Positions 10,692 to 56,048 of a stretch of DNA of 64,000 nucleotides are shown here, in pieces (position 1 is the stretch's first letter; every line of letters begins with the position of its first letter). Under the pieces are notes generated by a model. That model had not been told where the DNA came from. It made no database searches and worked only from the letters and a program-made list of their open reading frames with translations. A program made the translations under genes and the position numbers. The stretch is from Flavobacteriales bacterium (GTDB lineage Bacteria; Bacteroidota; Bacteroidia; UBA10329), in contig JBIKWM010000015.1 of assembly GCA_044356305.1 (NCBI GenBank), forward strand, positions 1,552 through 65,551, given 5' to 3'.

Positions 10692-10692
10692 G

Positions 10693-13559: not shown

Positions 13560-13634
<75 letters not shown>

Positions 13635-13977: not shown

Positions 13978-14050
13978 AGCCGGTGGAGGGACTCGAACCC
14001 CCGACCAGCTGATTACAAATCAGCTGCTCTACCAGCTGAGCTACACCGGC
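13978..14050 (-). tRNA. tRNA-Thr (anticodon TGT)
   Basis: Reverse complement GCCGGTGTAGCTCAGCTGGTAGAGCAGCTGATTTGTAATCAGCTGGTCGGGGGTTCGAGTCCCTCCACCGGCT. Confidence 0.85.
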
Positions 14051-27682: not shown

Positions 27683-28432
27683 TTGAGATCCCTTCTCCTA
27701 TCCATCGCAATAAGTCTTTCGCTTTCATCGTGCATGACGCGCAAGGACATATCATATTTTCAGAATCTGACCGATTCTACTGCCATTCAATCCATTAATC
27801 AGTCTATTGATGCAATCATTCAGCCTGGAGACCTCATCTCAGTTCATGTAACGAGCCTGAGCAAGGAGGCGAGCAGTTTTTTCAACACTCTTGACGACAA
27901 GGGTATTGAAGGGCCTGTGAGCTCCTATCTTGTAAGTGCCGCAGGGACAATTGACATTCCTCTTGTCGGTTCAGTCAAAGTGAGCGGTATGAGTGCCACC
28001 GGGGCCAAGGAAATTATAACCTCTGGCCTTTCAAAGTACCTTGTAGAACCTTCGGTTAGGGTGCGCATTCGCAATTTCAAAGTCACACTTCTGGGCGAAG
28101 TTTCGCGTCCAGGGGTGTACCCAATAGAAAATGCCAAGATTACATTAATTGAAGCTCTTGGGCTTGCTGGTGACCTGACCATATTCGGTCAAAGAGCAAA
28201 TGTCCTTATCATTAGAGAAGAGAACGGAGAACGTAAGTTCCTGCGGATAGATCTTAAGGATCAAGGACTATTTAACTCGGACTATTACTACCTGAAGAAC
28301 AATGATATTGTGTACGTAGAACCAGGCAAGGGAAAGATTGCCAGTGCCGATGCGGTGTACCGTTGGCTTCCGATAGTCCTGAGCGGACTGACAACCTTAG
28401 CATTGTTCATTCGAGCGGGAACCACGTTCTGA
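27683..28432 (+). CDS. Polysaccharide export protein (Wza-like OPX)
   Basis: 249 aa with a signal peptide and Poly_export/SLBB-type sequence (PGDLISVHV...IRIRNFKVTLLGEVSRPGVY). Confidence 0.75.
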   Translation: MRSLLLSIAISLSLSSCMTRKDISYFQNLTDSTAIQSINQSIDAIIQPGDLISVHVTSLSKEASSFFNTLDDKGIEGPVSSYLVSAAGTIDIPLVGSVKVSGMSATGAKEIITSGLSKYLVEPSVRVRIRNFKVTLLGEVSRPGVYPIENAKITLIEALGLAGDLTIFGQRANVLIIREENGERKFLRIDLKDQGLFNSDYYYLKNNDIVYVEPGKGKIASADAVYRWLPIVLSGLTTLALFIRAGTTF

Positions 28433-28474
28433 AAACCATAATGGCTCGAATAAAACCAAATAACTGACGCACTC

Positions 28475-30910: not shown

Positions 30911-31116
30911 CTTATTTATAAATCTCAGGTTGGCAATAATTTTCAGATTTATTTATCTGAGCTCGAATTCAATTCGCAATAAGACGGCACCGACTGCGAT
31001 ATAGTACACCTCGATCGGTACACTCTCGTACTGCTTGCTACTTCCATTTTAACTACTCTGAAACCTGTCAATAAGAATAAAGTAGCTTAATTCCAAAAGA
31101 TCAATCATTACTTCAC

Positions 31117-32781: not shown

Positions 32782-34150
32782 GGACTTTCTTGCCGAAGAC
32801 AGTGAGAAAGACGACTTTAAAGTCAAGCCATAGGCTCCAATTTTCGATGTACCACAAATCATGCTTTGTCCGATTATACTTTTGGTCATAGGTCTCTGTA
32901 GGGCCTCTCCAGCCATTCACTTGTGCCCAACCCGTTATACCAGGTTTAATATAATGACGAATCATGTATCCGTCAACATCACGCTGAAAATCCTCGTTCA
33001 AAAGGGTTCGATGTGGTCGTGGCCCTACAACACTCATATCGCTCAAAAGGACATTTATAAACTGGGGCATCTCATCAATACTGTACTTGCGCATGAAACG
33101 GCCGATGCGTGTCACTCTTGGATCATCCTTAACGGTGCTTTGGGTATTGTTTTGTGCCGGGGCGTTCTGACGCATGCTCCGAAACTTGAAACACTTGAAA
33201 GGTCTACCTCCTTGCCCAATGCGCTCAGGCACATAAAACACAGGGCCAGGGCTCTCAAATAGAATTAGTAGCGATATGACCATCAGAACGGGTGAGAGTA
33301 TAACAAGAACACATGACGCGAAAATCAAATCAAACAAACGCTTCAATAATTTATTAACGAGATTGTCCAATGGAACTTCTCTTACATTCACGATTGGAAG
33401 GTCACCCACGCGATGGAACACGTAAGAAGCATTAAAAATTCGGTAATAATCGGGTATAAGGCGAATCCTGATGCCATGGAAATCAGCGATATCAACGACT
33501 GATTTAATCTTCTCCTCAGCAGACACGGGGAGTGCCAGATAAACTTCATCTATATCGTACTTCTCAATGACACCCTCGAGTATATCCAATGGACCAAGCT
33601 GAAGCTCAACAGGTGTATCTGAACCAACGAAATCATCGTCAAGAAATCCTATGACACGGTAGCCCAAAGCCGGATTTGAGACCATGAAACGGTAAACCTT
33701 AGTTCCCACTCTACCCGCCCCGAGCACTAGTACCTTTACCATGTGCCTGCCCCGCTGCCTCATGATTCTCAAATACTGATATAGAGCCACATAACCGAAA
33801 TTGCGCAATAGGAAAAAAATCCCGATGGTACCGAAAATCATCAGCCGTGAGTACAGCTCAATATTGAACAATAGGATACCTACAGAGACCGCTCCGCTGA
33901 GCATGAGGAAATCAATAATCTGAATTCTCACCCGAGAACTTACACGTTCGCGGAAGGCTAAGTTCTGATTGCTGAAAAACAAGACTATTGCTGTCCATCC
34001 AACTGAAATGACCAAGAGGGCGAAATAAGCATTAGGTCTGGGGCTGAGGTTTCCGAATTTGACCAACCCTGCCAGGTAGAACGAGATGACAATAAGGAAC
34101 AAGTCATACACAAGAAAATATCCAACCAGCCTCTTGTCTCTCTGAAGCAT
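32765..34150 (-). CDS. Undecaprenyl-phosphate sugar-1-phosphate transferase (WbaP/WcaJ family initiating enzyme)
   Basis: N-terminal TM bundle, CoA-binding-like domain, and the Bac_transf domain (PGPVFYVPERIGQGGRPFKCFKFRSM...DEMPQF...VVGPRP). The longest ORF runs to 34267. The Met at 34150 avoids overlap with the divergent gene. Confidence 0.8.
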   Translation of the reverse strand: MLQRDKRLVGYFLVYDLFLIVISFYLAGLVKFGNLSPRPNAYFALLVISVGWTAIVLFFSNQNLAFRERVSSRVRIQIIDFLMLSGAVSVGILLFNIELYSRLMIFGTIGIFFLLRNFGYVALYQYLRIMRQRGRHMVKVLVLGAGRVGTKVYRFMVSNPALGYRVIGFLDDDFVGSDTPVELQLGPLDILEGVIEKYDIDEVYLALPVSAEEKIKSVVDIADFHGIRIRLIPDYYRIFNASYVFHRVGDLPIVNVREVPLDNLVNKLLKRLFDLIFASCVLVILSPVLMVISLLILFESPGPVFYVPERIGQGGRPFKCFKFRSMRQNAPAQNNTQSTVKDDPRVTRIGRFMRKYSIDEMPQFINVLLSDMSVVGPRPHRTLLNEDFQRDVDGYMIRHYIKPGITGWAQVNGWRGPTETYDQKYNRTKHDLWYIENWSLWLDFKVVFLTVFGKKVHENAF

Positions 34151-34162
34151 CCCCTTCTGCTC

Positions 34163-35320
34163 TTGAGGCGCAAATGTACACGCGAAACAACTGGTAAAAA
34201 TTATAAGGCGCTCACTGATTCTGCTGAATCGAGATGTCCAGAACGATTGTTGTTCAAAATAGACCACCGAAGCTTGAAAGGCTTATTTTTGCGGCACCAT
34301 AAAAGGCCTGTGATTTTATTTGACGTTTACCATTTGCCGCAGTGGAACTTCCTGCGGAGCTCTATTCACTCGGTCGAAGCTGAGGAGCGGATAGTGTGCT
34401 GTGTGGACCGTTCTAAACTGGTGAGCATAATCCGTAAAGAACTCAACGGGGGCACGTTCATTCATTTCGGTTCCTATAGGAACAATTTTGGTTTTTTAAG
34501 CATGGTGTTCCTCATAATAATCCCTAGGATACTTTGGCTGATATACATACTGAGGAAGTTAAAGGTCACCTATGTTATTTCGGCAAACTACCAGTCAAAT
34601 CTTGCGGCCCGTTTCTGGGGCATCCCGAATATTGTATTCAATGATGATCCGCGTAAAGGGGTGATTCAAATTGCGAGATTTGCAGCAAATGTCACCTACC
34701 TTACTAAGGGCCTGAAATACCCGGGTACTCGAGAATTGAACTGTTTAAAAGAGTGGGCATACTTAGCTCCGAAGTATTTCAGCCCTGACCGAGGTGTTCT
34801 CACGTCTATGGGTCTCAGTCCCTTCGGTTACATAATGCTACGCGAGGTCAGCACTGAGACAACCAACTACTCCCAACAAAAGGCCGGCATGCTCATTACG
34901 GCTGAAGTGCCTGAGGGCGTCACGGTGATTCTGTCTCTTGAGAACAAGAAAATGCGGGCTCAGGTGCCTATTGGTTGGACGATACTTGAAGAGCCAGTGA
35001 ATGATATCCACAGTCTGATGTTCTTCGCCCGGGGTTTCGCGAGCACAGGGGATAGCATGGCCCGAGAAGCTGCGGAACTTGGCGCACCTTCATTCTATTC
35101 GGGCATTCGGGACATGGGTGCCAATAAGGTGCTGATTGATATGGGGCTAATGGAACAGGCCACAGCTGAGGAGGCCATCGCTAGGCTCTGTTCACTGAAG
35201 CCAATTACGGATGTTCAAGCAGAGGTCAACAGGCGCCAAGAGATAAGAGAGCGCATTGCCAGAGAATGGGATGATGTGAATGAATTGATACAAAGTCACT
35301 TGAAAGAAACCAAGAAATAA
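34163..35320 (+). CDS. DUF354-family protein (glycosyltransferase-like fold) in the polysaccharide locus
   Basis: 385 aa. The N-terminal region ...ILFDVYHLPQ...GIPNIVFNDD resembles DUF354. The true start may lie downstream of the first ATG. Confidence 0.45.
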   Translation: MRRKCTRETTGKNYKALTDSAESRCPERLLFKIDHRSLKGLFLRHHKRPVILFDVYHLPQWNFLRSSIHSVEAEERIVCCVDRSKLVSIIRKELNGGTFIHFGSYRNNFGFLSMVFLIIIPRILWLIYILRKLKVTYVISANYQSNLAARFWGIPNIVFNDDPRKGVIQIARFAANVTYLTKGLKYPGTRELNCLKEWAYLAPKYFSPDRGVLTSMGLSPFGYIMLREVSTETTNYSQQKAGMLITAEVPEGVTVILSLENKKMRAQVPIGWTILEEPVNDIHSLMFFARGFASTGDSMAREAAELGAPSFYSGIRDMGANKVLIDMGLMEQATAEEAIARLCSLKPITDVQAEVNRRQEIRERIAREWDDVNELIQSHLKETKK

Positions 35321-36624
35321 TGGACGTTTCAATTTTCGGGCTTGGATACGTTGGATGCGTGTCGATGGCATGTTTGGCCAAAGCCGGCCACCGCGTAATT
35401 GGGGTTGATGTGGCGGCTGATAAGAACATGCTGATTAACAGTGGCAGGGCCACAATTGTGGAAAAAGATATTGACGACCTGATTGAGGAAGGTTGGAAGA
35501 GAAATGCTCTGAGTGCCACTGCTGATGCTACCGAAGCGGTTATGAATTCGGAAGTGAGTATCATCTGTGTAGGTACACCCAACAACGACCGAGGAAATCT
35601 CCACCTTCGATATATTGAAGAGACAGGTAGAGCCATCGGCTTAGGGTTGCGTAAAAAGGAAGGCTACCATGTGGTAGCGATCCGCAGCACTGTGGTGCCT
35701 GGAACCTGCAGCAGCCTTGAAGAGATTATTGCTCACGAATCGGGCAAGACCCCTGGGGTTGATTTCAGTGTCCTCAGCAATCCCGAGTTCCTTCGGGAAG
35801 GAAGTGCAGTAAATGACTATTTCAATCCGCCAATGACCGTCATAGGATCTTCAGACACCAAAGCCGTTAAAGTGATAAGTCGGTTATATGAGAACCTTCC
35901 TGCGCCCATTATTGTAGTGGAGACCAAGGTGGCAGAAGTCATTAAATTCGTCAACAATTCATATCATGCCCTTAAAATAGCCTTTGCGAATGAAGTAGGG
36001 AATACGTGTAAGGCGTTGGGCATAGACTCGCATCAAGTGATGGAACTGTTTGGCCAAGACACGAAACTGAATATCTCTACTGCTTATTTCAAACCGGGCT
36101 TCGCCTATGGAGGTTCATGCCTTCCGAAGGACCTGCTGGGATTGATTGCAATGGCCCGAGATAATGATGTGCGAACCCCATTGTTAAAAGGCATTTCAGA
36201 AAGTAATGATGAGCAGGTCCAACGGGCACTCAGATTGGTTTACGCATCAGGAAAGAGAAAAGTAGGGATGCTTGGCCTTTCCTTTAAAGAAGGTACCGAT
36301 GATTTGCGTCTGAGTCCACACGTGGTTGTGGCCGAAACGCTTTATGGCAAGGGCTTCCAGTTAAGGATATTCGACAAGAATGTGCACGTATCAGGACTCC
36401 ATGGAAAAAACAAAGCATATATGGATCATCACCTACCTCACCTCAACTCTCTTATATCTGATGACTTGGAGGCTGTCATTGTTGAATCAGATGTCATTAT
36501 ACTAAGTCACAAAAATCAGATATTCAGCAACATACATCTTCGCTATCCCGAAAAATTGGTTATTGATCTTAACAGGAACGTACCGATTCTCAGCGCAGGA
36601 AATTATCAGGGCATATGTTGGTGA
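35320..36624 (+). CDS. GDP-mannose 6-dehydrogenase (AlgD-like nucleotide-sugar dehydrogenase)
   Basis: 434 aa. MDVSIFGLGYVGCVSMACLAKAGHRVIGVDV..., GGSCLPKD catalytic Cys, and a C-terminus ...QGICW. These features track AlgD along its whole length. Confidence 0.75.
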   Translation: MDVSIFGLGYVGCVSMACLAKAGHRVIGVDVAADKNMLINSGRATIVEKDIDDLIEEGWKRNALSATADATEAVMNSEVSIICVGTPNNDRGNLHLRYIEETGRAIGLGLRKKEGYHVVAIRSTVVPGTCSSLEEIIAHESGKTPGVDFSVLSNPEFLREGSAVNDYFNPPMTVIGSSDTKAVKVISRLYENLPAPIIVVETKVAEVIKFVNNSYHALKIAFANEVGNTCKALGIDSHQVMELFGQDTKLNISTAYFKPGFAYGGSCLPKDLLGLIAMARDNDVRTPLLKGISESNDEQVQRALRLVYASGKRKVGMLGLSFKEGTDDLRLSPHVVVAETLYGKGFQLRIFDKNVHVSGLHGKNKAYMDHHLPHLNSLISDDLEAVIVESDVIILSHKNQIFSNIHLRYPEKLVIDLNRNVPILSAGNYQGICW

Positions 36625-36633
36625 CCGTGTGGG

Positions 36634-37590
36634 TCACAGGCCAGGACACACTCTGTTGTAAACAGACATTAGCCGCCTAGCTACTGTGCGGTTGTCATAA
36701 CTGGTGAAATTGGGCCCAGCAGTACTGCGCGTACCGGTGCCCATCACCGTCTGAAGCGCATCGACATAAGCTCCGATTGACTTTGAAATGATGTGGTTCC
36801 CTGTTGAACCAATGCAGATTCTGCCCACTTCTCCCACATCGTTACTCACAATAGGTAGTCCATTAAGAAGTGCTTCTTTTATTACCTGAGGACTTCCTTC
36901 TGAGACGCTGCACATCAGTAGTGCATCTGAGGCCTTCATTACGGCTGTCACACCGGCCCTATCAAGGCCTTTAAGTTCTAAGAACTCAATATTGCGCTGT
37001 GGATTACGTTTGCGCAACTCATCAATAACGGAATGAGCAAATACTGGATCCTTCTCAGGCCGAGTGAACGATGAACAGAAAAGGACCACAAAAGCATTAG
37101 CATCAAGCCCTAATCTGCCCCGCGTGTTAGTTAAAGTACTCTCTTTCGATTCAAAATCAATACCGCATGGAATTACCTCACTAGATAACGGAAGTAGGGT
37201 CTGCAAGGGCGCGGATACCACAATCCGCGCATGGGCCAGCAGACCGGCAGCCCACGAGACCCACCTCTCTCGGCCCAGATTCAAGTCGCTGCCATGGTAA
37301 GTGACAACCCCTTTGGCGCGTTTCCAGAACATACTCCTTACGGCACACATTGCAGGCAGAGCCGAAAGGCCATAGTGTGCGTGCAATATTATAGGGTCCA
37401 TCTGCCATATTCGATTGCACAACTCGAAATAGGTCTTAAAGTATCCCATTATTCCTCCCTTACCAATCAAATGATGACAGACTTCTCCGGAATTGGTGAA
37501 GCGTTCCAAGGCTATCGCCTGCTCTTCTACAAAAGGATGTGGGCGGCCATCAGGATTACTCCTGCTCACGAAGATGATCTGTTCTTTCAT
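36634..37590 (-). CDS. Glycosyltransferase family 4 (GT-B)
   Basis: C-terminal GT4 motif region (...EGSPQVIKEALLNGLPIVSNDVGEV...). The start is trimmed to the Met at 37590 (MKEQIIFVS). Confidence 0.7.
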   Translation of the reverse strand: MKEQIIFVSRSNPDGRPHPFVEEQAIALERFTNSGEVCHHLIGKGGIMGYFKTYFELCNRIWQMDPIILHAHYGLSALPAMCAVRSMFWKRAKGVVTYHGSDLNLGRERWVSWAAGLLAHARIVVSAPLQTLLPLSSEVIPCGIDFESKESTLTNTRGRLGLDANAFVVLFCSSFTRPEKDPVFAHSVIDELRKRNPQRNIEFLELKGLDRAGVTAVMKASDALLMCSVSEGSPQVIKEALLNGLPIVSNDVGEVGRICIGSTGNHIISKSIGAYVDALQTVMGTGTRSTAGPNFTSYDNRTVARRLMSVYNRVCPGL

Positions 37591-38818
37591 TCTGTTTCTT
37601 CTGATGGTAAGCAGCCGCCAATAGTCCCAAGTAAATGAAAATGAACGAGCGGAAGGAAATAATGTACATCTGTCCACTCACTGAGATAACGAATTGAATT
37701 AGAAACATGAACCAAAACAACCTGACGTTCTCATCAGACCAATCCTTAAGAGGCATCCTGAAAAGGAAGGGTATGGCAAAAAGGAAAATGAGGTAAATCA
37801 AAAGGCCCACCACACCTCCGCCATGCAACCAAGTGAAGTAGTCAACATGGATCATTCTGTCCAAGTACATTCCCCCGCCATAATTTCCCATAGAGTTGAA
37901 CATCTCAAAACCAAAGAGTGATTTGGGAACATCGCGGAACATAAGCACCTCTTCGTAAATGATCCCGATCTCCTGATAACGCATTTCGCCTTCAAGGGAC
38001 TCTACAGCCATCTTATCAGCCCTGGCCTCCATTCGCTCAAGGAATGCCTGAGAATTTACCGTCACAAAAAATGCCAATCCCAATATGATAACCGATGGGA
38101 GCAGGCGAGAGAAAACGGTGCGGACACTACCGGTGTTCATGAAAGCCACGCCCATCACAACAATCAAGGGTGAGAGCCTTCTCAGAGTGAACACCAGCAA
38201 AACTGTACTTATGGCCGATGCGGCCAACTCGATATATCTTCTCATTAATGACCCTGATCCACCTAGGGTGGTCAAGGTCACAATAGTCATGAGCGAGATT
38301 AAATGCAGATCCGAGCCGAAGAGGTAACCTGAGAGGAATGAATCGCTCCCGTATGTGCTCACTCCGAAACCGAAAATATTGCTCAACATCACATAGATAA
38401 TGAATATGATCAGCGCTTTAGGAAACAATGCCCTCAATCTGGCCAGAACCCGCTGGGCATCCTTCACCCGAAAAGCCAAAGAGACAAGTATCAAAGGGAT
38501 GAACACCCTCATTGCAAATCTGGCCGAGTGTTCTACATCTGAGCTCCGCATTATCCCTATCAAAGTATATAGGACAAGAAAAATGAGCACGATATCAAGA
38601 CGCCTTAGTCCGGTCCGCGCATAATGAACCACTATGAATATATAAAAGAACCCGGCCCTCATAAGAGCGATCATGCCTGCTAACTCCGGACTTTGTGCCA
38701 TATCAAGCGCGATATTCAGGACAAATGCGGAGAACATGAAATCACCGAGATTCAATGACTTTACACTCAGGAAAAGCCAGAGCACAATGAGAAAAATGGC
38801 AACAACCCCAAAAATCAT
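37556..38818 (-). CDS. Wzy-like polysaccharide polymerase (O-antigen ligase family membrane protein)
   Basis: 420 aa, about 10-12 TM helices with a large loop. Located between the GT and acetyltransferase genes. Confidence 0.55.
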   Translation of the reverse strand: MIFGVVAIFLIVLWLFLSVKSLNLGDFMFSAFVLNIALDMAQSPELAGMIALMRAGFFYIFIVVHYARTGLRRLDIVLIFLVLYTLIGIMRSSDVEHSARFAMRVFIPLILVSLAFRVKDAQRVLARLRALFPKALIIFIIYVMLSNIFGFGVSTYGSDSFLSGYLFGSDLHLISLMTIVTLTTLGGSGSLMRRYIELAASAISTVLLVFTLRRLSPLIVVMGVAFMNTGSVRTVFSRLLPSVIILGLAFFVTVNSQAFLERMEARADKMAVESLEGEMRYQEIGIIYEEVLMFRDVPKSLFGFEMFNSMGNYGGGMYLDRMIHVDYFTWLHGGGVVGLLIYLIFLFAIPFLFRMPLKDWSDENVRLFWFMFLIQFVISVSGQMYIISFRSFIFIYLGLLAAAYHQKKQNERTDHLREQE

Positions 38819-39354
38819 CAGTTCCTGGTTCCAATGACTTTGGCAGGCACACCGCCCACTATGTCATATGCTATAATGTCTTTTGTCACCACACTGCATG
38901 CAGCCACCACAGCCCCTGTCCCTATTCGTACCCCGGGCATAATTACAGCCCTCCTTCCGAGCCAAACATCATCTTCTATAACAATTGCCTTCTCTTGGCC
39001 ATAACCTTGAGTGATGATTGGCCTGTCCACAGAACTGAACTCATGATTGCGTGTATAGAACAGCACTTCAGGCGCAATAAGCACATTATCGCCTATTGTA
39101 AGATCTCCATGCACTTCGCACAGTCGGCCCAAGCCGCTATTATTGCCAATGGAGATTCTGCCTTTTCCGAGATAACATTCGGCATCGATATTGACATTGG
39201 AACCTACATGCCTGAGAAACATACGGGCGAACGTAGCCCTCAAAGTCTTACTGGGCGGACCTACCAAAGGCAACGATGTCCTAGGCAAACGATAGGCCAA
39301 TAGATAATATCCGGCTATTCCTAACCACTTTCTCATCCTCGCATAATTTTCCAA
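38818..39354 (-). CDS. Hexapeptide-repeat sugar O-acetyltransferase
   Basis: 178 aa left-handed beta-helix (IGDNVLIAPEVLFYT...IEDDVWLGRRAVIMPGVRIGTGAVVAACSVV). Confidence 0.75.
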   Translation of the reverse strand: MENYARMRKWLGIAGYYLLAYRLPRTSLPLVGPPSKTLRATFARMFLRHVGSNVNIDAECYLGKGRISIGNNSGLGRLCEVHGDLTIGDNVLIAPEVLFYTRNHEFSSVDRPIITQGYGQEKAIVIEDDVWLGRRAVIMPGVRIGTGAVVAACSVVTKDIIAYDIVGGVPAKVIGTRN

Positions 39355-40037
39355 GTCATCCGCTTAAATTGAAAAGCTAAATGGTAGGCCAAATAGGCCC
39401 AAGTTCTTAACGGTCTCGAGCCTATGGGCTTAAAAGGATAACCGGACTTTTCGAGCTCCATGTTAAACCTAATTCCAATGGTCATGGAGTCGCGGTCATA
39501 GTTTGGTACTTTATCTTTAGTTCCAACCGACTTACCAGCTGTCTCATTCACACGTGGAAGCGGGCGCACTTCAATGGCACCTATTAGGCGCAGCATGTCC
39601 TTAAAATCTGACGAGAGGTTTTCCTTACGCAATAGCAACCGTGGTGATGCTGCTATGAAGTTTGAAGGATCGACAAATGCCAATGGCATGAATAATCTAA
39701 GATAGTTCTCAAAGCCGATACCCACCACTCTGACAAGAAAATAAGCAGGAAGGTTTGCCAAAAGCATCATGTACTTGACTACGGGCCAATTGCCATGATG
39801 CATGAAGTAAGACAAGGGATTGTTCTTGTACTTGAGATACTTGCTATACGTTCGATCTATGGGATCGCTAACCCCGTAGAACAAGTCGTAACCGCTGCAA
39901 TCATCAGGAATCTTGAAGGAATGTTTTGATCCTTCAGACCGACCTCCATATTGACTCATCAGTTCCTGCCTGACAGCTTCGCTCCCTGTGCGTGGAACCT
40001 CAATAAACACCGCTCTGTACCGGTCCAGAATAACCAT
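39333..40037 (-). CDS. Sulfotransferase-family protein
   Basis: 234 aa. PAPS 5'-phosphosulfate loop IEVPRTGSEAV, and an RDP-like 3'-phosphate motif region VSDPIDRTYSKY. Confidence 0.5.
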   Translation of the reverse strand: MVILDRYRAVFIEVPRTGSEAVRQELMSQYGGRSEGSKHSFKIPDDCSGYDLFYGVSDPIDRTYSKYLKYKNNPLSYFMHHGNWPVVKYMMLLANLPAYFLVRVVGIGFENYLRLFMPLAFVDPSNFIAASPRLLLRKENLSSDFKDMLRLIGAIEVRPLPRVNETAGKSVGTKDKVPNYDRDSMTIGIRFNMELEKSGYPFKPIGSRPLRTWAYLAYHLAFQFKRMTWKIMRG

Positions 40038-40040
40038 TTT

Positions 40041-41009
40041 TTATCCGAGTCTTGACTTGAGTTTATGGAACCTCATTCTGAGGCGGTGAGTGTCGAAGAG
40101 TATCATTCGGGCAGTATTTGCCAACGAACCGAAAATGAACCTCAAAGAATCGAACAACAGGTGTAGAAGGTTCATCGGGTTCAGGCAGGCGCTTCTGCGA
40201 CTTAGCCCACCGTAACCGAAGGATTCAAGTTCCTTTATGCACACTAACGAGTAGATGAAATTGACATATCCATCGGGGTCGAATTTACCTTTGTTTCTCC
40301 TGATCACACCGGCACCTACATTTCCATGAAAATGCCTATGGCTTTCTGGGACTACAAACTTCTTGTCCGGCCTTTCTGACACTTGGGTCTTCACTCCGAG
40401 CCACGAAACTATCTCTGCTACCCTTTCCGGATTCTCAAGTATGTCCTCATACCTGACTATGTGCTTGATCCACAAGGTCGAGAGGAATACCCTACTCTTA
40501 TACTGCCAATTGAGGGCTGATTGCAGTACATTTTGGCTAAATGAACGACCAGCCAGATTTGTGCTATTTGCCTTCGACAAATGAACATCCCTGCCGTCAC
40601 GCACCATCAGAATTGCCTTTGCATCGGGCCAGAGGTGCTCAAACTGACGCAGGTGATTAGTAGGAGGATGCTTCACAATGATGCACCTTTCGGTTGAATC
40701 TTCAAACCAAGGGTATCGCAACCTCAGGTGTTCTGCAATGATGGCCTCTGAGAGCGACTTAACATCCGTGTGTCTCTGGGCCATTGTCAGCACGGTGACT
40801 TTGCTCAATCCGAGATCATTGAACTGAGGCTCCTCAAAGAGGTACTCAGTGAGTCGGTCTGCAACTGGCAGCGTTGTCAGGCTCAAGAGTCTACTGACAA
40901 AGGCGGTTTCGTTCGTCACAGCCACGAACTCAAATCGCTCAAGCAAATCGGCCAACATTGTTGACCCGCTCCGGCTGTCGTATAAGATGAATGCCAGTTT
41001 AGAATTCAA
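40041..41009 (-). CDS. Sulfotransferase-family protein
   Basis: 322 aa. 5'-PSB loop YDSRSGSTML and 3'-PB motif MVRDGRDVHLS (R-D-x-R-D). Confidence 0.65.
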   Translation of the reverse strand: MNSKLAFILYDSRSGSTMLADLLERFEFVAVTNETAFVSRLLSLTTLPVADRLTEYLFEEPQFNDLGLSKVTVLTMAQRHTDVKSLSEAIIAEHLRLRYPWFEDSTERCIIVKHPPTNHLRQFEHLWPDAKAILMVRDGRDVHLSKANSTNLAGRSFSQNVLQSALNWQYKSRVFLSTLWIKHIVRYEDILENPERVAEIVSWLGVKTQVSERPDKKFVVPESHRHFHGNVGAGVIRRNKGKFDPDGYVNFIYSLVCIKELESFGYGGLSRRSACLNPMNLLHLLFDSLRFIFGSLANTARMILFDTHRLRMRFHKLKSRLG

Positions 41010-41092
41010 TGTCCTCCCTCTTAAATGCGCCTGCGCGAAATTACATGGTTATATCGGGCCTTGGCACCAGTTCTGGAACAGGTGTTGCCATA

Positions 41093-42331
41093 CTACAAGA
41101 AACTGTTGCCGGTTGTATTCACCATTCTGCGATGCAGCATGTAGTTCCAGAGGGTACCACTTATGAGCGTTGCAATTGCCAGCCCATTCAAGCCTAACCA
41201 TGGCACAGTGGTAAAAGCCAAGATCAATGTTATGACAAGCGATACGGCTGTAGACCGGACGAAGTAATCCCTCATATCGCTCAACTGAAAATATAGGCCA
41301 ACCGGCCCAAAGAAGACATTTAAAACGTTACATAAGATAACTGTAACGCAAAGAATCAAGAACAATGGCTCTGCTGGATAGCCATAGAACTTAAGAAACC
41401 AAGGACTGCAAAGCAGTGCCAACATAGCGAATGCAAAGGTGGTTAGCTTTGATAACCGTATTAGTTGTCTATGGCGGTCCGAGAGTTGGTGACCCTCAGC
41501 TAGCCTTGCCAGGCCCTTGGCAATATCCGCATTCAACGCTACCAGTGGCAGGTTGACAAGCTTACCGAGTTTCTGTACCACGGAATAAAGAGCCACCTGC
41601 CCCAAGGGCAAGAATGCCCCTGCCAAGAAGACCTCGAGCCACCCTTTAAATACCTGAAGCCCACTGCCCAAAGACAGCGAGAGGCCTTTAGTGTAAACTG
41701 ACCAAAAAAGCTTTGGGCTCATTCCAGAATGCTCAGGGGTTGACCCGTAAGACCGGATAAGGACTACAGCCAATGTGATGAGACATGTAATCAGGCCACT
41801 GGTCATGAGCATTTCAACTGGTTCGGCCTCATACTTGGATAGAAGAAAGACCATCACCACGGCCGATCGCAGGATGTCTTTGAACAGAATGTACCAATTA
41901 CCGTTCAGCCAGTAGCGCGACACCTCAAACAGGAACAAGGAGAACGAATATGCGATGAACGCGACCAATAACCTCCAATCAGCCAAGGTGCTTATTGATT
42001 CCAGAGAGGCTATCAGGGCCCCAACCATTGCTATCGCCACAATATTCAGTGCCACCCCCATGGCTTTCAATGTCAACAAATCAACATCAAAGGTCTCTTT
42101 TCCAGCAAATGTCCTTAGTGCCAAGAGACCTTGACCTACCCCTGCCAAAGTGCCGAAAGTGAGGAGATACCCATGTGTGAGAATGTACTCCCCATACTCC
42201 GTGTCGCCCCTGAACTGCATGTAGAGCTTAGCCAGAGCGAACGTAACCAGAACACTGCCGCCCTTAAAGAACAGCGAAGTGAATTGACGGATAACACCTC
42301 TTTTGTTCACCTTACCTGCCATTTGCACCAA
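41093..42331 (-). CDS. Wzx-type oligosaccharide flippase (polysaccharide biosynthesis protein, MOP superfamily)
   Basis: 412 aa with about 12 TM helices, in the Wzy/GT/ST operon. Confidence 0.7.
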   Translation of the reverse strand: MVQMAGKVNKRGVIRQFTSLFFKGGSVLVTFALAKLYMQFRGDTEYGEYILTHGYLLTFGTLAGVGQGLLALRTFAGKETFDVDLLTLKAMGVALNIVAIAMVGALIASLESISTLADWRLLVAFIAYSFSLFLFEVSRYWLNGNWYILFKDILRSAVVMVFLLSKYEAEPVEMLMTSGLITCLITLAVVLIRSYGSTPEHSGMSPKLFWSVYTKGLSLSLGSGLQVFKGWLEVFLAGAFLPLGQVALYSVVQKLGKLVNLPLVALNADIAKGLARLAEGHQLSDRHRQLIRLSKLTTFAFAMLALLCSPWFLKFYGYPAEPLFLILCVTVILCNVLNVFFGPVGLYFQLSDMRDYFVRSTAVSLVITLILAFTTVPWLGLNGLAIATLISGTLWNYMLHRRMVNTTGNSFL

Positions 42332-43193
42332 ATAAGCTGAAGTGCGCGAATGGATCTGACATCGTCATCCTATCCCGAAGTATCATGATGTCGTCAAAAT
42401 CTGTAGTGCGCTTTGAAACAGGCACATTTGTCAATCGTTTATTTCTTGCGGCATAAATTCCAAGTTTAAGGAACAGAGGCTGTGTCCAAGAATCTGAGCA
42501 ATTGAGTCCTTGATGGTCAAACTCGATTCCATTTCTGCCAATAACTTGGAGGCGCCCTTTTTCATTGGATGCGAGCCTGATCACGAGAAGGCATTCTCGC
42601 CATTCTCCAGGTTCGGATAAGAACTTTCTCCTCATCGTTGTTCGCCCTGATGAGTATGACTGCCAGATACCACCTGAAGCATCTGAACGGAGCCGCCCTA
42701 CTAGTGGCAGCCATGGACTGATTGGTTCTTTCTCCTTCTTTGTCCGTGTATGCAACTGCATACAAATCGCATCAGGAAATCCTGTCGCATCATCGGGGAA
42801 GGGTCTCATCCTAAAGTAAACTAGATAGGTCCCCTTGCCAATCTCAAATTCAGAGTTCTCTCCGAGCGAAATCTCCGTTCTGAAATCATTCCTTGGGTCG
42901 TTGTTACTGAGTTCAGCCCTCATAAAGAAAGTTGAATCAGACTCATCCATGACAATAACAGGGCAGTTACCGCTACAAACCCCAGCCTCGCTCAATAATC
43001 CAGTTTCAAAACCACAGCTGAAAATCAACTCAACCTCCTTCTGATTAAGCAGTTTTTGGATTTCCCGTTGAACTGGTCTTTCAGCATTCAAAAGAGTTCC
43101 TTTATCCAGATTGTCCGGCAATTTTTGGCTCATAGACCTGAATGGAATCAGAATCACGAGGCTAATAAGTCTAAGGGTCAAACTATACCCCAT
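42312..43193 (-). CDS. Secreted beta-jelly-roll protein, polysaccharide lyase family 7-like candidate
   Basis: 293 aa with a signal peptide. Three PL7-like motifs in canonical order: FRTEIS (for RSELR), CMQLH (for QIH), LFLKLGIYAARN (for YFKAGVYNQ). Confidence 0.35.
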   Translation of the reverse strand: MGYSLTLRLISLVILIPFRSMSQKLPDNLDKGTLLNAERPVQREIQKLLNQKEVELIFSCGFETGLLSEAGVCSGNCPVIVMDESDSTFFMRAELSNNDPRNDFRTEISLGENSEFEIGKGTYLVYFRMRPFPDDATGFPDAICMQLHTRTKKEKEPISPWLPLVGRLRSDASGGIWQSYSSGRTTMRRKFLSEPGEWRECLLVIRLASNEKGRLQVIGRNGIEFDHQGLNCSDSWTQPLFLKLGIYAARNKRLTNVPVSKRTTDFDDIMILRDRMTMSDPFAHFSLFGANGR

Positions 43194-43197
43194 CGCA

Positions 43198-43779
43198 TCA
43201 AAATTTCAACTCACTTTCCACCGCCCCGCACACACTGTGCGCAATGAGTATATGCATCTCCTGAATGCGCGCGGTGTCATCACTCGGAACAATCAGGGAC
43301 AGATGGCACTTGGGTGCCAACTGGCCACCATCGCGACCTGCAAGTGCGATGCATGTGCAACCGATGGCCAATCCTGCCTTGACAGCGGCCAGCACATTGT
43401 GGCTGTTGCCACTGGTACTTATAGCTATGATGACATCTCCTGGACTTGCCAGGGCCTCCACCTGCCGCGCGAAGATCTGCTCAAATCCAAGGTCGTTGCC
43501 GATGGCCGTGAGAGCGCTCGTGTCAGTTGTGAGAGCAATGGCAGCCAACGCCTTCCTGTCAAACCTGAAACGACCACTCAGCTCGGCTGCGAAATGCTGG
43601 GCATCGGCTGCGCTTCCCCCATTGCCACACAAAAGGACTTTGTTACCTGCATAGAGTGCCTTTATGATCAATTGCGCCATTGCAGCCATCTGAGGCGCCA
43701 ATGCGTTTCGCACAGATGTGAGGACCTCGGCATGGGCGTCTATCTCATCAATCATGCTCTTCTCCAACGGGCTCATCAC
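43198..43779 (-). CDS. gmhA: D-sedoheptulose-7-phosphate isomerase
   Basis: 193 aa SIS domain ([19 protein letters not shown]). Confidence 0.9.
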
Positions 43780-44723
43780 TTGCTCAAGTATCCATCGGTT
43801 GAACTAAGAAACGCGTGATAACGTGCAATACCCTCATTGAGTGACATGAACCGGTGCGCACATCCAGCGGCCCTCAATTGATTCAGATCGGCACAAGTGA
43901 ACTCCTGATATTTCCCTTTCAGGTGTTCAGGAAATGGCACCTCCGTCACCTTGCCATTTGGGCTGAGGCGTTGCAGCGAATCAGCCACAGCGGTGAAGGG
44001 TTCGGCCTTGCCGGTGCCACAGTTGAAAATCCCTGTGGTCGGGTGGTCCAGAAAATGAAGAACCACGGCAACCACGTCCTCTACAAAAACGAAGTCTCGT
44101 TTGAATCCCTCACTTCCCTCAAACAACTGCATGGATCCACCCTGCTGCAGCTGCCTGTAAAGATGGTACGCAACCGAGGCCATGTGCCCTTTATGGTTCT
44201 CTTGTGGCCCATATACGTTGAAGTACCGTAGACCCGTGACAGGCGCATGCAGGTTACCTTTTGCCCTACGATGGCGCACATGATTATCGAAGGCAAGCTT
44301 TGAGAAAGCGTATCCGTTTAGCGGCTTTTCACACATGTGCTCTTCGCGAAAACCCAATGTGCCATTGCCATACACTGCGGCACTGCTAGCATAGATAAGC
44401 GGCACATGCCACCTGTTGCAAGCATGCAAAACCTCCTTGCTGTAGAGGTAATTGTTCCGCATCAGGTAATCATTGTCCGTCTGGGTGGTATCTGAACACG
44501 CTCCTTGGTGAATGATGGCCGCATATTTCTGACTCGGCCCCTTTATAAGTGCAAGGAAATCGTCCCTGTGCATGTAGTCAGCATATTGCAGACCATTCAG
44601 ATTAAGAAACTTAGGGCCGTTCCCAAGATTATCGACAATTAAAATATCCCTGATACCACGCTTATTGAGCCCTTGCACAATGTTGCTCCCAATGAAGCCT
44701 GCTCCACCTGTTACAACTATCAT
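43776..44723 (-). CDS. hldD: ADP-L-glycero-D-manno-heptose 6-epimerase
   Basis: 315 aa. [33 protein letters not shown]... and the YxxxK SDR catalytic pair. Confidence 0.9.
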
Positions 44724-51628: not shown

Positions 51629-52846
51629 TCAGGCCCTGCGGTTGGCCAGCAGCAGCGGAGGTTCGCCATTGAACGGATTGCTGCGGCCTATGGTGCGCGC
51701 GCCCAGGCCCGAGGCCCGCATCACGGCCCGGTCGCCAAAGCGCTGGCGTATGCGGTCCATGCCCTGGTAGAGGTTTATCATGCTCTCGTCCTCATCGAAC
51801 AGGCTGATCTGGTGGCTGCCCCCGGCCAGATGGCTGAAGCGTATGCCTATGAGCCGCACCAGCAGCCTACGGTCATATAGCCGGGCAAACAGCTCCTGCA
51901 CCACGGGCAGTATGTTGTGGTCGGCCGCGGTGTGGGGCAGGGTGCGCTGCAGGGTGTAGGTCTGAAAATCGGAGTAGCGCAGTTTGAGGGTGATGCAGGC
52001 GGTGACCTTCTGCGCCCTGCGCAACTGAAAGGCAAGGTTCTCGGCCATGGCCGTGAGGATGCCGCGCAGCATGGCCACATCGGTGGTGTCGCGGTCAAAG
52101 GTGCGCTCGGTGGATATGGACTTGCGCTCGTTGTAGGCCACCACGGGTGTGGGGTCTATGCCATTGGCCTTGCGCCACAGGGTGCGGCCGTTGGTGCCCA
52201 GCAGGCCCTCCAGCATCTCCACAGGCATCTGTTGCAGGGTGCCTATGTGTTTCACGCCCAGGTGGCACAGCGTGTGGTGCGTCTTCTCGCCCACCATGGG
52301 TATACGGTTAACGGGCAATGGGGCCAGAAAAGGGCGCTCGGTGCCGTTGGGCACATGCAACTGGTTGTTGGGCTTGGCCTGATCGGTGGCCACCTTCGAC
52401 ACGGTCTTGTTCACACTCAGCCCAAAGGATATGGGCAGCCGTGTCTCGCGCTGTATGGTCTGGCGCAGCTCGGTGGCAAATTTGAGGCACCCGAAATAGC
52501 GGTCCATACCGGTCAGGTCCACATAGAACTCGTCAATGGAGGTCTTCTCCATGAGCGGTACGCGCTCGCGGATGATGTGGGTCACCTCGTCAGACAGTTT
52601 GAGGTAACTGGCCGAGTTGCCACGTATCACCACGGCCTCGGGGCACAGTTGGCGGGCCATGCGCATGGGCATGGCCGAGCGTATGCCGAATGCCCGCGCC
52701 TCGTAGCTGCATGCGGCCACCACACCGCGGTCTGAGGTGCCGCCCACCAGCACCGGACGGCCTACGAGGCGGCTGTCGTGCAGCCGCTCAACCGACACGA
52801 AGAAGGAGTCGAGGTCGAGATGGGCGATGGTGCGCTCGGGCTGCAT
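51629..52846 (-). CDS. dinB: Y-family DNA polymerase IV
   Basis: Catalytic HLDLDSFF and SIDEFYVD acidic residues are present. The start is trimmed to the Met at 52846 (MQPERTIAHLDLD). The longest ORF runs to 52993. Confidence 0.85.
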   Translation of the reverse strand: MQPERTIAHLDLDSFFVSVERLHDSRLVGRPVLVGGTSDRGVVAACSYEARAFGIRSAMPMRMARQLCPEAVVIRGNSASYLKLSDEVTHIIRERVPLMEKTSIDEFYVDLTGMDRYFGCLKFATELRQTIQRETRLPISFGLSVNKTVSKVATDQAKPNNQLHVPNGTERPFLAPLPVNRIPMVGEKTHHTLCHLGVKHIGTLQQMPVEMLEGLLGTNGRTLWRKANGIDPTPVVAYNERKSISTERTFDRDTTDVAMLRGILTAMAENLAFQLRRAQKVTACITLKLRYSDFQTYTLQRTLPHTAADHNILPVVQELFARLYDRRLLVRLIGIRFSHLAGGSHQISLFDEDESMINLYQGMDRIRQRFGDRAVMRASGLGARTIGRSNPFNGEPPLLLANRRA

Positions 52847-53003
52847 GGCGGGTTCAGTGTGTGGCGGTGGCGCATGTGCGGCTGCGGGCGGCCCCGTGGG
52901 GCAGATGCCAAGGTAGGCGGGCCGCCCCTGCATGGGGCCGGTGTTGATAAATAGATTGCTGCTGAGTGTGTGGCAGATGCATCGGGGGCACAATGCTCAG
53001 CAC

Positions 53004-53030
53004 GCACACCGTAACCTATTTACGGTGTGC
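53004..53030. promoter_or_regulatory. Perfect inverted repeat in the dinB/dnaE2 divergent promoter (candidate SOS-type operator)
   Basis: GCACACCGTAA-cctat-TTACGGTGTGC, with 11-bp arms. It ends 34 nt upstream of the dnaE2 ATG. Confidence 0.35.
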
Positions 53031-53063
53031 TGTGCCCTGCCGTAACGACCTTGGCACCGCCTC

Positions 53064-56048
53064 ATGCACCTCAACTGCCACAGCCATTTCAGTTTCAGAT
53101 ATGGGCTGATGCCGCCCTCGGCACTGGTGGAGGCCGCCCGACAGTGGGGGCTGCCGGGCATGGCCCTCACCGACATCAACTGCACATCGGGCATGCTCGA
53201 CTATGTGCGCAGATGCCAGGACGCAGGGCTGCGGCCCGTGGTGGGGGTCGATTTCAGGACCGGTGCCCACCAGCACTTTGTGGCGCTGGCCGTTGACAAC
53301 GAAGGCCTGATGGCCATCAACCTGCACCTCACGGCCTTTCTGCTGCAGAAGGGCGGCCCCCCGCAGCCGCTCCATCACCCCCATGTGATTGTCATATACC
53401 CGTTCGGCCAGGTGCCCGACAGGGCCCTGGGGCCCGATGAGTACATCGGGGTGCGGCCCTACGACCTCACCCGCGTGCGGTTCAGCCCGCACTGGCGCAC
53501 CCACCGGCAGCGCATGGTGGCCATGGCCCCCTCCACCCTGCCCGATGCGAAGGCCTTCTACACCCATTGCCTGCTGCGGGCCATGGACCTGAACACGCTG
53601 CTGAGCAAGCTGGTGCCAACCGATGTGTGCCACCGCGATGATGTGCTGCCACCGCCCGATGCCCTGCACCGGACCTATGCAGAGTATCCGGACATGCTGG
53701 TGCGTGCCGATGAGCTGCTGGGCAGGTGCGAGGTGCATTTCGCCTTCGGCACCGACCAGGAGCACAACAACCTGCGCACTTTCAGCGGCAGTGTGGCGGG
53801 CGACCGCGAGATACTTCTGCGCCTCTGCCACGATGGCCTGCCCTACCGCTACGGTGCCGATCCGGGGCCCGATATCATGGCGCGGTTGGAAAAGGAGGTG
53901 GACCTCATCACCCAAAAGGGATTCCTGTCCTATTTCCTAATCAACCACGACATGTGCCGATACGCCCACAACAAGGGCTACATGCACGTGGGCCGTGGCA
54001 GCGGGGCCAACAGCATGGTGGCGTATCTGCTGCGCATAACAGACGTTGACCCCATCGGGCTCGACCTCTACTTTGAGCGGTTCATGAATCTGTACAGGCG
54101 CAACCCGCCCGATTTCGACATCGATTTCAGCCATCTGGACCGCAATGATGTGACGCGGTATCTCTTCAGCCGATACCCGAACACCGCGCTCCTGGCCGTA
54201 TACAGCACATTCCAGACCAGGGCGGCCCTGCGCGAACTGGGCAAGGTGTACGGTCTGCCCGCGGCCGAGATAGACTCCCTTTCAGATGAAGGCACCGACC
54301 CTGCCGCACTTGATGCGCGGAGCCGAAAGGTGCTGCATTATGCCCGCGCCATACACGACATGCCCAGTCATCTGAGCGTGCACTCGAGCGGAATCATCAT
54401 CAGCGAGCGGCCCATAGCGTGGTACACGGCCACCAGCCTGCCGCCCAAGGGCTTTCCCATCACGCACTTCAGCATGGAAGAGGCCGAGGATGCCGGGCTC
54501 TACAAATTTGATGTGCTGGCACAGCGCGGCCTGGGCAAGATAAAGGACGCGGTGCTGATGGTGAATGGCGGGCAGGGAGGGAATGCGGGCGCGGGAGGCG
54601 ATGATGCGGCAGTGCGGCACATTGACATTCACGACATAAAAAGATTCATTGAGGATGAGAAGATAAAGGAGCTGCTGCGCGAGGGCCGGGCCATAGGCTG
54701 TTTCTATGTAGAGAGTCCGGCCATGCGCATGTTGCTCAAAAAACTGCGTGTCGACACCTACCTGGGGCTGGTGGCGGCCAGTTCTGTGATCAGGCCGGGC
54801 GTGTCGCAGAGCGGCATGATGCAGGAGTACATCAAACGCTTCCGCGACCCCGAGGAACGGAAGAAGGCCCACCCTGTGCTGGCGCAGATCATGCCCGACA
54901 CGTTCGGGGTGATGGTGTATCAGGAGGATGTGATAAAGGTGGCGCACCTGTTTGCCGGGCTCGACCTGGGCGAGGCCGATGTGCTGCGCAGGGGCATGAG
55001 CGGCAAGTTCCGGGGCCGCGAGGAGTTTGCCCGGGTGCAGAGGCGCTTTTTTGAGGGCTGCCGCCAACTGGGCCGCACCGATGGCGATGCGCGCGAGGTG
55101 TGGCGGCAGATTGAGAGTTTTGCCGGATATGCCTTCGCCAAGGGCCATTCGGCCTCGTATGCGGTAGAGAGCTACCAGAGCCTGTACCTTAAGGCGCATC
55201 ATCCGCTCGCATACATGGTGGCCACGTTGAACAACGGTGGCGGCTTTTACCGCCCCGAGTTCTATGTGCACGAGGCGCGGCTGCACGGGGCCAGCATTGA
55301 GCCGCCCTGCGTGGCCACCGGTCACGGCCACTGCACCCTGCGCGGCACCACCATTGTGCTGGGCATGCAGATGCTGCTCAATCTGAGCGGGGACACGGTG
55401 AGGGAAATAGTTGAATCGCGCGAGAAGGACGGCCCCTTCACGGGCCTCGACAATCTGCTGGACCGCACCACGATGGGGCTTGAGCAGGCGCAGGTCCTCA
55501 TCAGGGCCGATGCGCTGCGCAGCTTCGGCATACCCAAGCGCCAGTTGCTGTGGCAGGCGCACCTCAGGTTCGGGCTGCAACGCCCGGCCCCGGTACAGCC
55601 CAGGCTATTTGCTGACGAGCGCAGGCAGTTCGTCATGCCCGCCCTTACATCCACGCAGCTCGAAGATGCCTTTGATCAGATGGAACTGCTCGGTTTTCCG
55701 CTCTGCGACCCCTTTCTGTTGGCCCGCGACCCGCTGCCCCAAGGGGTGGTGGTGCGCAATCTGCCCGAGCTTGTAGGCAAAGAGGTGGAGGCCGTGGGCT
55801 ATGTGGTGACGGTGAAGCGCACCGCCACACGCAACGGCCAGCTCATGTATTTCGGCACCTTCATTGACCGCGAAGGATATTTCCTTGACACCGTCCATTT
55901 TCCGCAGGTGGCCCTGAGCCATCCGTACCGCGGCCGCGGGCTATACCACATCAAAGGCCGCGTGGCCGTTGAGTTCGGCTACCACAGCATTGAAGTGACC
56001 GCGTTTGATAGATTGGCCCTGATGCCCGATCCGAGGTTGGTGGATTAG
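53064..56048 (+). CDS. dnaE2: Error-prone DNA polymerase III alpha-type subunit (DnaE2-like)
   Basis: 994 aa. PHP domain start MHLNCHSHFSFRYG, Pol III alpha core, OB-fold C-terminus. It is shorter than a replicative DnaE and divergent from dinB. Confidence 0.8.
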   Translation: MHLNCHSHFSFRYGLMPPSALVEAARQWGLPGMALTDINCTSGMLDYVRRCQDAGLRPVVGVDFRTGAHQHFVALAVDNEGLMAINLHLTAFLLQKGGPPQPLHHPHVIVIYPFGQVPDRALGPDEYIGVRPYDLTRVRFSPHWRTHRQRMVAMAPSTLPDAKAFYTHCLLRAMDLNTLLSKLVPTDVCHRDDVLPPPDALHRTYAEYPDMLVRADELLGRCEVHFAFGTDQEHNNLRTFSGSVAGDREILLRLCHDGLPYRYGADPGPDIMARLEKEVDLITQKGFLSYFLINHDMCRYAHNKGYMHVGRGSGANSMVAYLLRITDVDPIGLDLYFERFMNLYRRNPPDFDIDFSHLDRNDVTRYLFSRYPNTALLAVYSTFQTRAALRELGKVYGLPAAEIDSLSDEGTDPAALDARSRKVLHYARAIHDMPSHLSVHSSGIIISERPIAWYTATSLPPKGFPITHFSMEEAEDAGLYKFDVLAQRGLGKIKDAVLMVNGGQGGNAGAGGDDAAVRHIDIHDIKRFIEDEKIKELLREGRAIGCFYVESPAMRMLLKKLRVDTYLGLVAASSVIRPGVSQSGMMQEYIKRFRDPEERKKAHPVLAQIMPDTFGVMVYQEDVIKVAHLFAGLDLGEADVLRRGMSGKFRGREEFARVQRRFFEGCRQLGRTDGDAREVWRQIESFAGYAFAKGHSASYAVESYQSLYLKAHHPLAYMVATLNNGGGFYRPEFYVHEARLHGASIEPPCVATGHGHCTLRGTTIVLGMQMLLNLSGDTVREIVESREKDGPFTGLDNLLDRTTMGLEQAQVLIRADALRSFGIPKRQLLWQAHLRFGLQRPAPVQPRLFADERRQFVMPALTSTQLEDAFDQMELLGFPLCDPFLLARDPLPQGVVVRNLPELVGKEVEAVGYVVTVKRTATRNGQLMYFGTFIDREGYFLDTVHFPQVALSHPYRGRGLYHIKGRVAVEFGYHSIEVTAFDRLALMPDPRLVD

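Follow-up and report, generated by a model that had tools for sequence, protein, structure and literature searches.

A divergent pair of error-prone polymerase genes

A 64,000-nucleotide stretch of the genome of a Flavobacteriales bacterium (assembly GCA_044356305.1, contig JBIKWM010000015.1), referred to here at its full length as the window, carries two genes for DNA polymerases of different families that are transcribed away from one another. The region between a Y-family polymerase gene, dinB, and a gene for a paralog of the DNA polymerase III (Pol III) alpha subunit holds a perfect palindrome. Here, we describe an analysis of this palindrome as a candidate operator through which DNA damage may control both genes. 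The two genes and their shared control region are as follows.

51629..52846, minus strand: dinB, Y-family polymerase of the Bacteroidetes PolY2 type, 405 aa from the ATG at 52846
52847..53063: divergent control region, 217 bp between dinB and the Pol III alpha paralog
53064..56048, plus strand: dnaE2-like Pol III alpha paralog, 994 aa

The dinB product matches the Pfam families IMS and IMS_C, exceeds the cutoff of one NCBIfam DNA polymerase IV model, NF002677 (282 bits against 256), and has a DNA polymerase IV structure as its best solved relative (7yll, E = 8e-62). Both catalytic motifs, DLDSFF and SIDE, are present in the translation, indicating an intact Y-family active site. Together with the Pfam matches, they bear out a first-pass annotation of the window, made from the sequence alone, which had called this polymerase catalytically intact. 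The C-terminal part of the protein carries the clamp-binding motif QISLF followed by MDRIRQRFGDRAVMRA, which by inspection only resembles the N terminus of RecA; its close resemblance to MDRMDKVYGKGAVMRM of the RecA from locus L189, described below, was likewise judged by eye. A 454-aa open reading frame (ORF) that begins at a TTG codon at 52993 is an upstream extension of the dinB ORF.

The product of the divergent gene contains the Pfam domains PHP (in its N-terminal part), DNA_pol3_alpha, finger and HHH_6. Homologues of about 1000 aa are common across Flavobacteriales, Cytophagales and Saprospiraceae, and residues D350, D352 and D483 do not vary across an alignment of 18 homologues; we take them to be the catalytic aspartate triad, in line with E. 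coli DnaE. The protein clears only the cutoff of the superfamily model TIGR00594, falling below those of the NCBIfam models for DnaE1 (NF004226; 473 bits, cutoff 1002) and for DnaE2 (NF004225, 'error-prone DNA polymerase'; 445 bits, cutoff 939). The two genes are an error-prone polymerase pair, and to this extent the earlier designation of the paralog as DnaE2-type stands, although the DnaE2 cutoff itself is missed, as is that for DnaE1. The divergent layout across about 220 bp was also described correctly, the spacer measuring 217 bp. In this spacer no sigma-70 promoter, intrinsic terminator or Rfam family was found. Searches of the 64-kb window with tblastn found no S24/LexA-like, RecA/ImuA-like, second Y-family or second DnaE gene, in agreement with the reported absence of imuA, imuB and lexA, and the C-terminal domains of non-canonical LexA, LexA, UmuD and CI had no match in the 64 kb.

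A putative mutasome of Bacteroidetes composed of PolY2 and DnaE2 has been described computationally, with Cellulophaga algicola as an example (Timinskas and Venclovas 2019; PMC6511836). It comprises two apparently active polymerases, lacks ImuA and ImuB-C, is frequently accompanied by lexA, and has a motif like the RecA N terminus in its Y-family member (PMC6511836). The gene pair of the window is a member of this system in an unusual, divergent layout. Like the described mutasome, it has adjacent Y-family and DnaE2-type genes and neither ImuA nor ImuB-C; unlike it, the genes do not form one operon and no lexA lies nearby. The pairing without imuA or imuB, noted by the first-pass annotation, is not peculiar to the locus and belongs to a system already described (PMC6511836). 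The LexA-regulated imuA-imuB-dnaE2 cassette of Proteobacteria and Actinobacteria likewise joins a second Pol III alpha to a Y-family protein under damage-inducible repression. The window pair departs from that cassette in its catalytically intact Y-family partner, in having no ImuA, and in a DnaE paralog that lies under the NCBIfam DnaE2 cutoff.

The polymerase cassette was compared with homologues found by an alignment-based scan of species-representative genomes, the comparison set being 80 loci among the matches listed, none of them from the source genome of the window. The DnaE paralogs at these loci, from Flavobacteriales, Cytophagales and Saprospiraceae, are 51-55% identical to that of the window, and a same-strand DinB, 59-70% identical to the window's, is present in 67 of the 80. 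The order is dnaE then dinB at 48 loci and dinB then dnaE at 19; the divergent order occurs at 0 of 80. A gene for a non-canonical LexA, detected with the C-terminal domains from the supplement of Sanchez-Osuna et al. (PMC8565304), stands beside the cassette at 43 of the 80 loci, mostly in divergent orientation just upstream of dnaE. Upstream of the cassette, CTAA-N5-TTAG occurs at 17 of the listed loci and tandem TGGA-N5-TCCA at 9, and other dyad-N5-dyad palindromes are also found there. The earlier statement that LexA operators are not well defined for Bacteroidota no longer holds: two motifs, CTAA-N5-TTAG and GGA-N5-TCC, and the non-canonical LexA repressors that bind them were established by electrophoretic mobility shift assay (EMSA) in 2021 (Sanchez-Osuna et al. 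2021; PMC8565304). The occurrence of LexA genes and of these published boxes at its homologues marks the cassette as a standard member of the SOS regulon in Bacteroidota. Because none of the 80 listed loci has the divergent order, a rearrangement did happen at the window locus. Thus, the window holds a rearranged copy of the cassette in which dinB is inverted and which has no repressor gene within 64 kb.

The palindrome and its recurrence upstream of recA

The palindrome and its parts lie in the control region on the side of the Pol III alpha paralog.

53004-53030: palindrome GCACACCGTAA-CCTAT-TTACGGTGTGC, with 11-nt arms that are 100% complementary and a 5-nt spacer; it ends 33 nt before the dnaE2 ATG
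53008..53026, minus strand: 19-bp core, read on the minus strand as ACCGTAA-ATAGG-TTACGGT; candidate operator over the -33 region of a dinB-directed promoter; it ends 37 nt before the dnaE2 ATG
53040..53045, plus strand: extra half-site CCGTAA, 9 nt past the palindrome, which may be due to chance

The perfect inverted repeat reported by the first-pass annotation was confirmed from the sequence. It is the only one in the 64 kb with arms of at least 11 nt and a loop of at most 10 nt, and its pairing reaches 15 bp if one bulge is allowed. First-order Markov simulations of 64 kb gave a mean of 0.18 such repeats, with at least one in 17% of simulations; scaled to the 217-bp spacer, the chance expectation is about 6e-4. 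Since 17% of simulated windows hold such a repeat, the palindrome by itself is weak evidence, and its significance comes from its recurrence elsewhere. Within the window, GTAA-N5-TTAC occurs once and CTAA-N5-TTAG not at all, and a search for further copies with up to 3 mismatches gave one weak match, at 25724, which is within chance expectation. A plasmid BLAST search with a 32-mer returned chance matches only.

In four related strains (L004-L007) the 217-bp spacer is about 93% identical to that of the window. The 19-bp core is unchanged in all four, although a divergence of about 7% is too little for statistics, and outer arm positions differ (GCAaACC...) without a compensating change. A 13-mer on the minus strand of the same spacer, GCAATCTATTTAT (52946-52958), shares 10 of its 13 positions with GTAACCTATTTAC, the palindrome centre as read on the plus strand, and runs in the opposite direction to it.

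A metagenome scan for ACCGTAA-N5-TTACGGT returned at least 127 sites, most of which are chance matches; the window spacer ATAGG or its variant ATAGA was found at 7 of the sites listed, against about 0.5 expected. At loci L189 and L138 the box lies 43-49 nt upstream of recA, past the stop codon of a peroxiredoxin gene. Further recA loci of the box-bearing clade were retrieved via RecA homologues, and the box is present in these independently retrieved promoters at L209/L210, L211, L212 (AACGTAA-ATAGA-TTACGTT; assembly GCA_048267965.1, contig JBLWWK010000003.1) and, with one mismatch, L213. The distance from core to recA across the box-bearing Bacteroidia is 43-62 nt, and the promoter module described below precedes recA in five diverged orthologous promoters. 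Because the arms of the recA box are conserved while the spacer and all flanks differ, these promoters constitute a phylogenetic footprint, and this selection at recA indicates that the box works in host promoters.

The box also occurs at a second PolY2-DnaE2 locus without an adjacent LexA gene, L084, where CACGTAA-ATAGC-TTACGTT lies between a topoisomerase IV B gene and dinB. The same 400-bp region (L084:700-980) contains two more N5 dyads, TGATTA-attat-TAATCA and GATTA-tttaa-TAATC. Both are similar to TTTGATTA-aaaac-TAATCAAA of L087, and a further variant of non-canonical LexA may recognise them as its operators.

By its RpoB sequence, the window organism belongs to an uncultured Bacteroidia lineage whose best named relatives are entries labelled 'MAG: Bacteroidia bacterium' at 82-84% identity. 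The window includes a housekeeping block at 711-14050 with rpoC, rpoB, rplL/J/A/K, nusG, secE, tuf and a cluster of five tRNA genes (12076-14050). In the clade with the recA box, recA lies about 8 kb downstream of rpoC (L211, L212), a synteny that is not kept in the window lineage (L214), and a 20-kb contig reached through the RpoB look-up contained no recA.

A directional promoter module in host genes and IS1595-family elements

Elsewhere the box is part of a promoter module in which ACCGTAA-ATnnn-TTACGGT is followed after 9 nt by TAnnTTTG, the -7 box of sigma-A promoters, and then by a gene. A -7 box matching at 5 or more of 6 positions lies downstream of 16 of 278 oriented sites and is perfect at 7 of them; in all 16 the offset is exactly 9 nt and the spacer starts with AT. 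As a control, 71 sites on viral contigs that match an arms-only pattern were examined in the same way. A 5/6 -7 box at offset 9 was present at two of these, neither having a spacer that starts with AT, and a 17-mer with the ATAG spacer had 0 matches in viral contigs. The -7 box of flavobacteria spans positions -12 to -5 (PMC9723704), which, with the 9-nt offset, places the dyad at about -40 to -22, centred near -31. The spacer of the dyad is directional and semi-conserved (AT-A/T-G/C-N), probably because it lies where the -33 element belongs, and a dimer bound over the -33 region would be expected to exclude RNA polymerase. This is the position of a repressor and not that of a class II activator.

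In the window, the best -7-like box stands at the same 9-nt offset as at the 16 module sites.

52991..52998, minus strand: candidate -7 box GAGCATTG, 9 nt past the core, a weak match (4/6) to TAnnTTTG

We infer that the module faces dinB, which would place the transcription start near 52986 and give dinB a leader of about 140 nt. The first-pass annotation had tied the palindrome to the start of dnaE2, whereas the oriented module points at dinB. Only 37 nt separate the core from the dnaE2 ATG, so that a dnaE2 promoter with a normal short leader would have to overlap the dyad as well. The predicted dinB leader is taken up by a 42-codon ORF (52853-52981, minus strand) whose end is 4 nt short of the dinB start codon. 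This frame is also open in L004-L007, yet most of the differences there alter an amino acid, so it is probably not coding.

The exact 19-mer ACCGTAAATAGGTTACGGT is present in four IS1595-family insertion sequence (IS) elements, typed by the Pfam families DDE_Tnp_IS1595 and Zn_ribbon_IS1595 (L111:126-144 and 1161-1179; L173:1755-1773; L127:8888-8906; L177:197-215). In each, the left terminal inverted repeat (IRL) precedes the 19-mer, a TAnnTTTG box follows it after 9 nt, and the transposase start codon lies beyond. The orientation of the 19-mer towards its gene agrees with that of the recA boxes. The transposases of the box-bearing elements are only 43-81% identical. The promoters of the Tn5 transposase and of integron intI are known cases in which LexA controls a mobile-element recombinase. 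Like these, the IS1595-family elements would carry an SOS operator in a recombinase promoter, a claim drawn from sequence only; unlike these, the element family, host phylum and box are different. The position of the 19-mer suggests that transposition of the elements may be damage-inducible, and the presence of this box inside IS1595 transposase promoters is previously unreported. The IRL of L111 contains TCCGTAA.

The module also precedes three small ORFs (L108, L171 and L134). Pfam gave nothing for the ORFs of L108 and L171, and PHROGs gave one weak match of unknown function for that of L134, so that no obvious regulator was found among them. Other sites share the arms of the box. A second family, (A)TACCGTAA-AAAAA/TTTTT-TTACGGTAT, lies 16-50 nt upstream of homologous AAA-ATPase-like genes (MLK.F.V.NFKNF...) on low-GC metagenome contigs (L093:6080, L136:57, L163:2148, L194:10131), and similar sites recur in the low-GC viral loci L232, L233, L240, L250, L260 and L271; this family may represent a separate operator system that uses these arms. 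Multi-copy hairpin repeats with these arms, TTACGGTTTAACCGTAATTGCGTTACGGTTAAACCGTAA in L089 (5920, 9484, 11163) and CACCGTAAGCCGCTTACGGTG in L153 (2382, 2516, 2694), look like repetitive extragenic palindromes unrelated to the SOS module.

Two observations concern the surroundings of the polymerase pair. In related strains a Fic/Bro-N gene lies between dinB and an aldehyde dehydrogenase gene (L004:6720-7613; L005:4890-5783; L006:3853-4719; L007:3689-4555), an insertion that the window does not have. Further along the window, positions 28000-44000 have a GC content of 42-48%, against 55-64% elsewhere, and the L005 genes beyond dinB include sulfate-activation, sugar-nucleotide epimerase and SIS genes; the low GC content and this gene content together suggest that the stretch is a horizontally acquired surface-polysaccharide island.

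A candidate operator for a DNA-damage-responsive repressor

The palindrome is likely to serve as operator for a dimeric repressor of the SOS type, one that responds to DNA damage and holds both polymerase genes off. The first-pass annotation had proposed a binding site for an SOS-type repressor, and this proposal gains weight from the recurrence of the 19-bp core upstream of recA in other Bacteroidia and from the non-canonical LexA boxes at related cassettes. The core is probably a third type of SOS box, beside the two that have been validated. Whether the repressor is itself a non-canonical LexA appears to us evenly balanced. In the proposed mechanism, one dimer bound to the core would silence both dinB and dnaE2. 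DNA damage would lead to removal of the repressor. The likeliest route is that an S24-type non-canonical LexA, with its gene elsewhere in the genome, cleaves itself under stimulation by RecA; upon loss of the repressor, active DinB and the DnaE2-type polymerase would be made together.

The core shares several properties with the SOS boxes of non-canonical LexA proteins. It consists of a dyad, a 5-bp spacer and the inverted dyad; it has the inner TAA...TTA of the CTAA-type box; and it is found in dinB, dnaE2 and recA promoters, over core promoter elements. It differs from these boxes in its dyad, (AC)CGTAA/TTACG(GT), which has G for C at the fourth position from the centre and other outer bases, and in its oriented, semi-conserved spacer (ATAGG, ATAGA, ATTCA). 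It differs further in its location over -33, 9 nt upstream of the -7 box, and in that the cognate repressor is not encoded next to it. A non-canonical LexA paralogue of Elizabethkingia anophelis has an EMSA-validated site, TTAC-AAATT-GTAA, beside an error-prone polymerase gene (PMC8565304, Table S10). This site, like the window core, is a diverged dyad-N5-dyad, and it demonstrates that specificity drifts within the non-canonical LexA family. Its half-sites are reversed (TTAC...GTAA against GTAA...TTAC), so the two are not the same recognition sequence. A literature search found no paper that uses the motif name GTAA-N5-TTAC.

Several results weigh against an SOS operator at this locus. The tblastn searches found no repressor gene in the 64 kb. 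GTAA/TTAC is not a validated dyad, and 0 of the 126 CTAA-type sites in Supplementary Data S2 start with G (PMC8565304). Boxes of the published types, where they precede the cassette, include or adjoin the -7 box and not the -33 region. The candidate -7 box of the window is no better than a 4/6 match, and at about 140 nt the dinB leader would be unusually long, the ATG elsewhere lying 27-49 nt past the core. The nearest DnaE orthologues, L001 and L002 (70% and 68% identity), have no dinB upstream and no palindrome; their neighbours differ from those of the window, which makes these two loci uninformative for footprinting. A more distant relative with bcp-recA synteny, L208, has neither the box nor an alternative dyad at recA. 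Finally, the lineage with the recA box is distant from that of the window, their RpoC proteins being about 70% identical.

Some of these results would fit a real operator whose regulator is not a LexA-like S24 protein, but either a new repressor family or a stress regulator of recA, polymerases and transposases that is not specific to damage. We regard this as unlikely, although it is the most serious of the alternatives. No S24 gene was found near the box at the window, L084, L138, L189 or L209-L213, the last group as judged from Pfam matches only. S24 tblastn searches of the metagenome box loci found no repressor gene, a single canonical LexA-like match in L153 lying 4 kb from the unrelated hairpin repeats, and at the recA loci L208-L213 no S24 peptidase was among the Pfam matches of called genes, no tblastn having been made there. 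The unvalidated dyad, the placement over -33, which is unlike that of known non-canonical LexA boxes, and the peroxiredoxin gene adjoining recA point in the same direction. On the other hand, recA, dinB, dnaE2 and transposases make up a classic SOS set, the dyad-N5-dyad geometry with its inner TAA/TTA equals that of the non-canonical LexA box, and drift in specificity is known among non-canonical LexA paralogues (PMC8565304).

The sharing of an identical 19-mer with four IS1595 elements raises the alternative that the palindrome is a relic, a left-end module left by the insertion and excision of such an element that also inverted dinB, with hardly any role today, if it has one. Strains L004-L007 have 25 nt (AGCAAACCGTAAATAGGTTACGGTG) in common with the IS copy in L177, and the divergent order, absent from the 80 listed loci, implies that a rearrangement took place. 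This explanation seems improbable. Neither transposase similarity near the site nor an IRL-like sequence was found in the window, and selection maintains the module at recA, a site without any IS remnant. The core is also invariant in all five strain copies, an observation that a spacer divergence of about 7% keeps from being statistically informative, and an IS origin would still allow the module to function as an operator at present.

Less probable still is a hairpin in the 5' leader of the dinB or dnaE2 mRNA that acts on stability, translation or termination. The predicted fold is strong (-28.9 kcal/mol, z = -3.8, on the plus strand; -35.1 kcal/mol, z = -2.8, on the minus strand), but there is no T-run and no terminator call, and Rfam searches at gathering and E-value thresholds gave nothing relevant. 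In related strains the substitutions are confined to a single arm, where they disrupt base pairs that no second change restores; at its other locations the element precedes the -7 box and hence stays outside the transcript. A chance palindrome in GC-rich intergenic DNA, for which the frequency of such repeats in simulated windows and the absence of the palindrome from the 68-70% identical DnaE orthologues could be cited, can be set aside, since the exact 19-mer with its asymmetric spacer and 9-nt offset recurs before recA and transposase genes on unrelated contigs.

The operator of an SOS-type repressor is thus the reading that we prefer, and a wider proposal extends it. The box and its invariable 9-nt distance from the -7 box may define a third, undescribed type of damage regulon in Bacteroidia, with a repressor that is outside both characterised groups of non-canonical LexA and is possibly not an S24 protein. 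IS1595 elements would then carry a complete, damage-inducible operator-promoter module able to seed SOS-controlled promoters, the dinB-facing module of the window being one such case. We offer this proposal as a rather doubtful one.

SOS control in Bacteroidota was unknown until 2021, and just two operator types have been established. The box described here spans the recA promoters of uncultured Flavobacteriales-like lineages, the polymerase pair of a distant uncultured Bacteroidia lineage and the transposase promoter of an IS family. In the window, the PolY2-DnaE2 pair keeps a shared control region even though its operon is broken and the repressor gene is not adjacent. The box may serve as a handle with which to find the missing repressor and to define damage regulons in lineages represented only by metagenomes, and it allows one to ask whether transposition is coupled to DNA damage in Bacteroidota.

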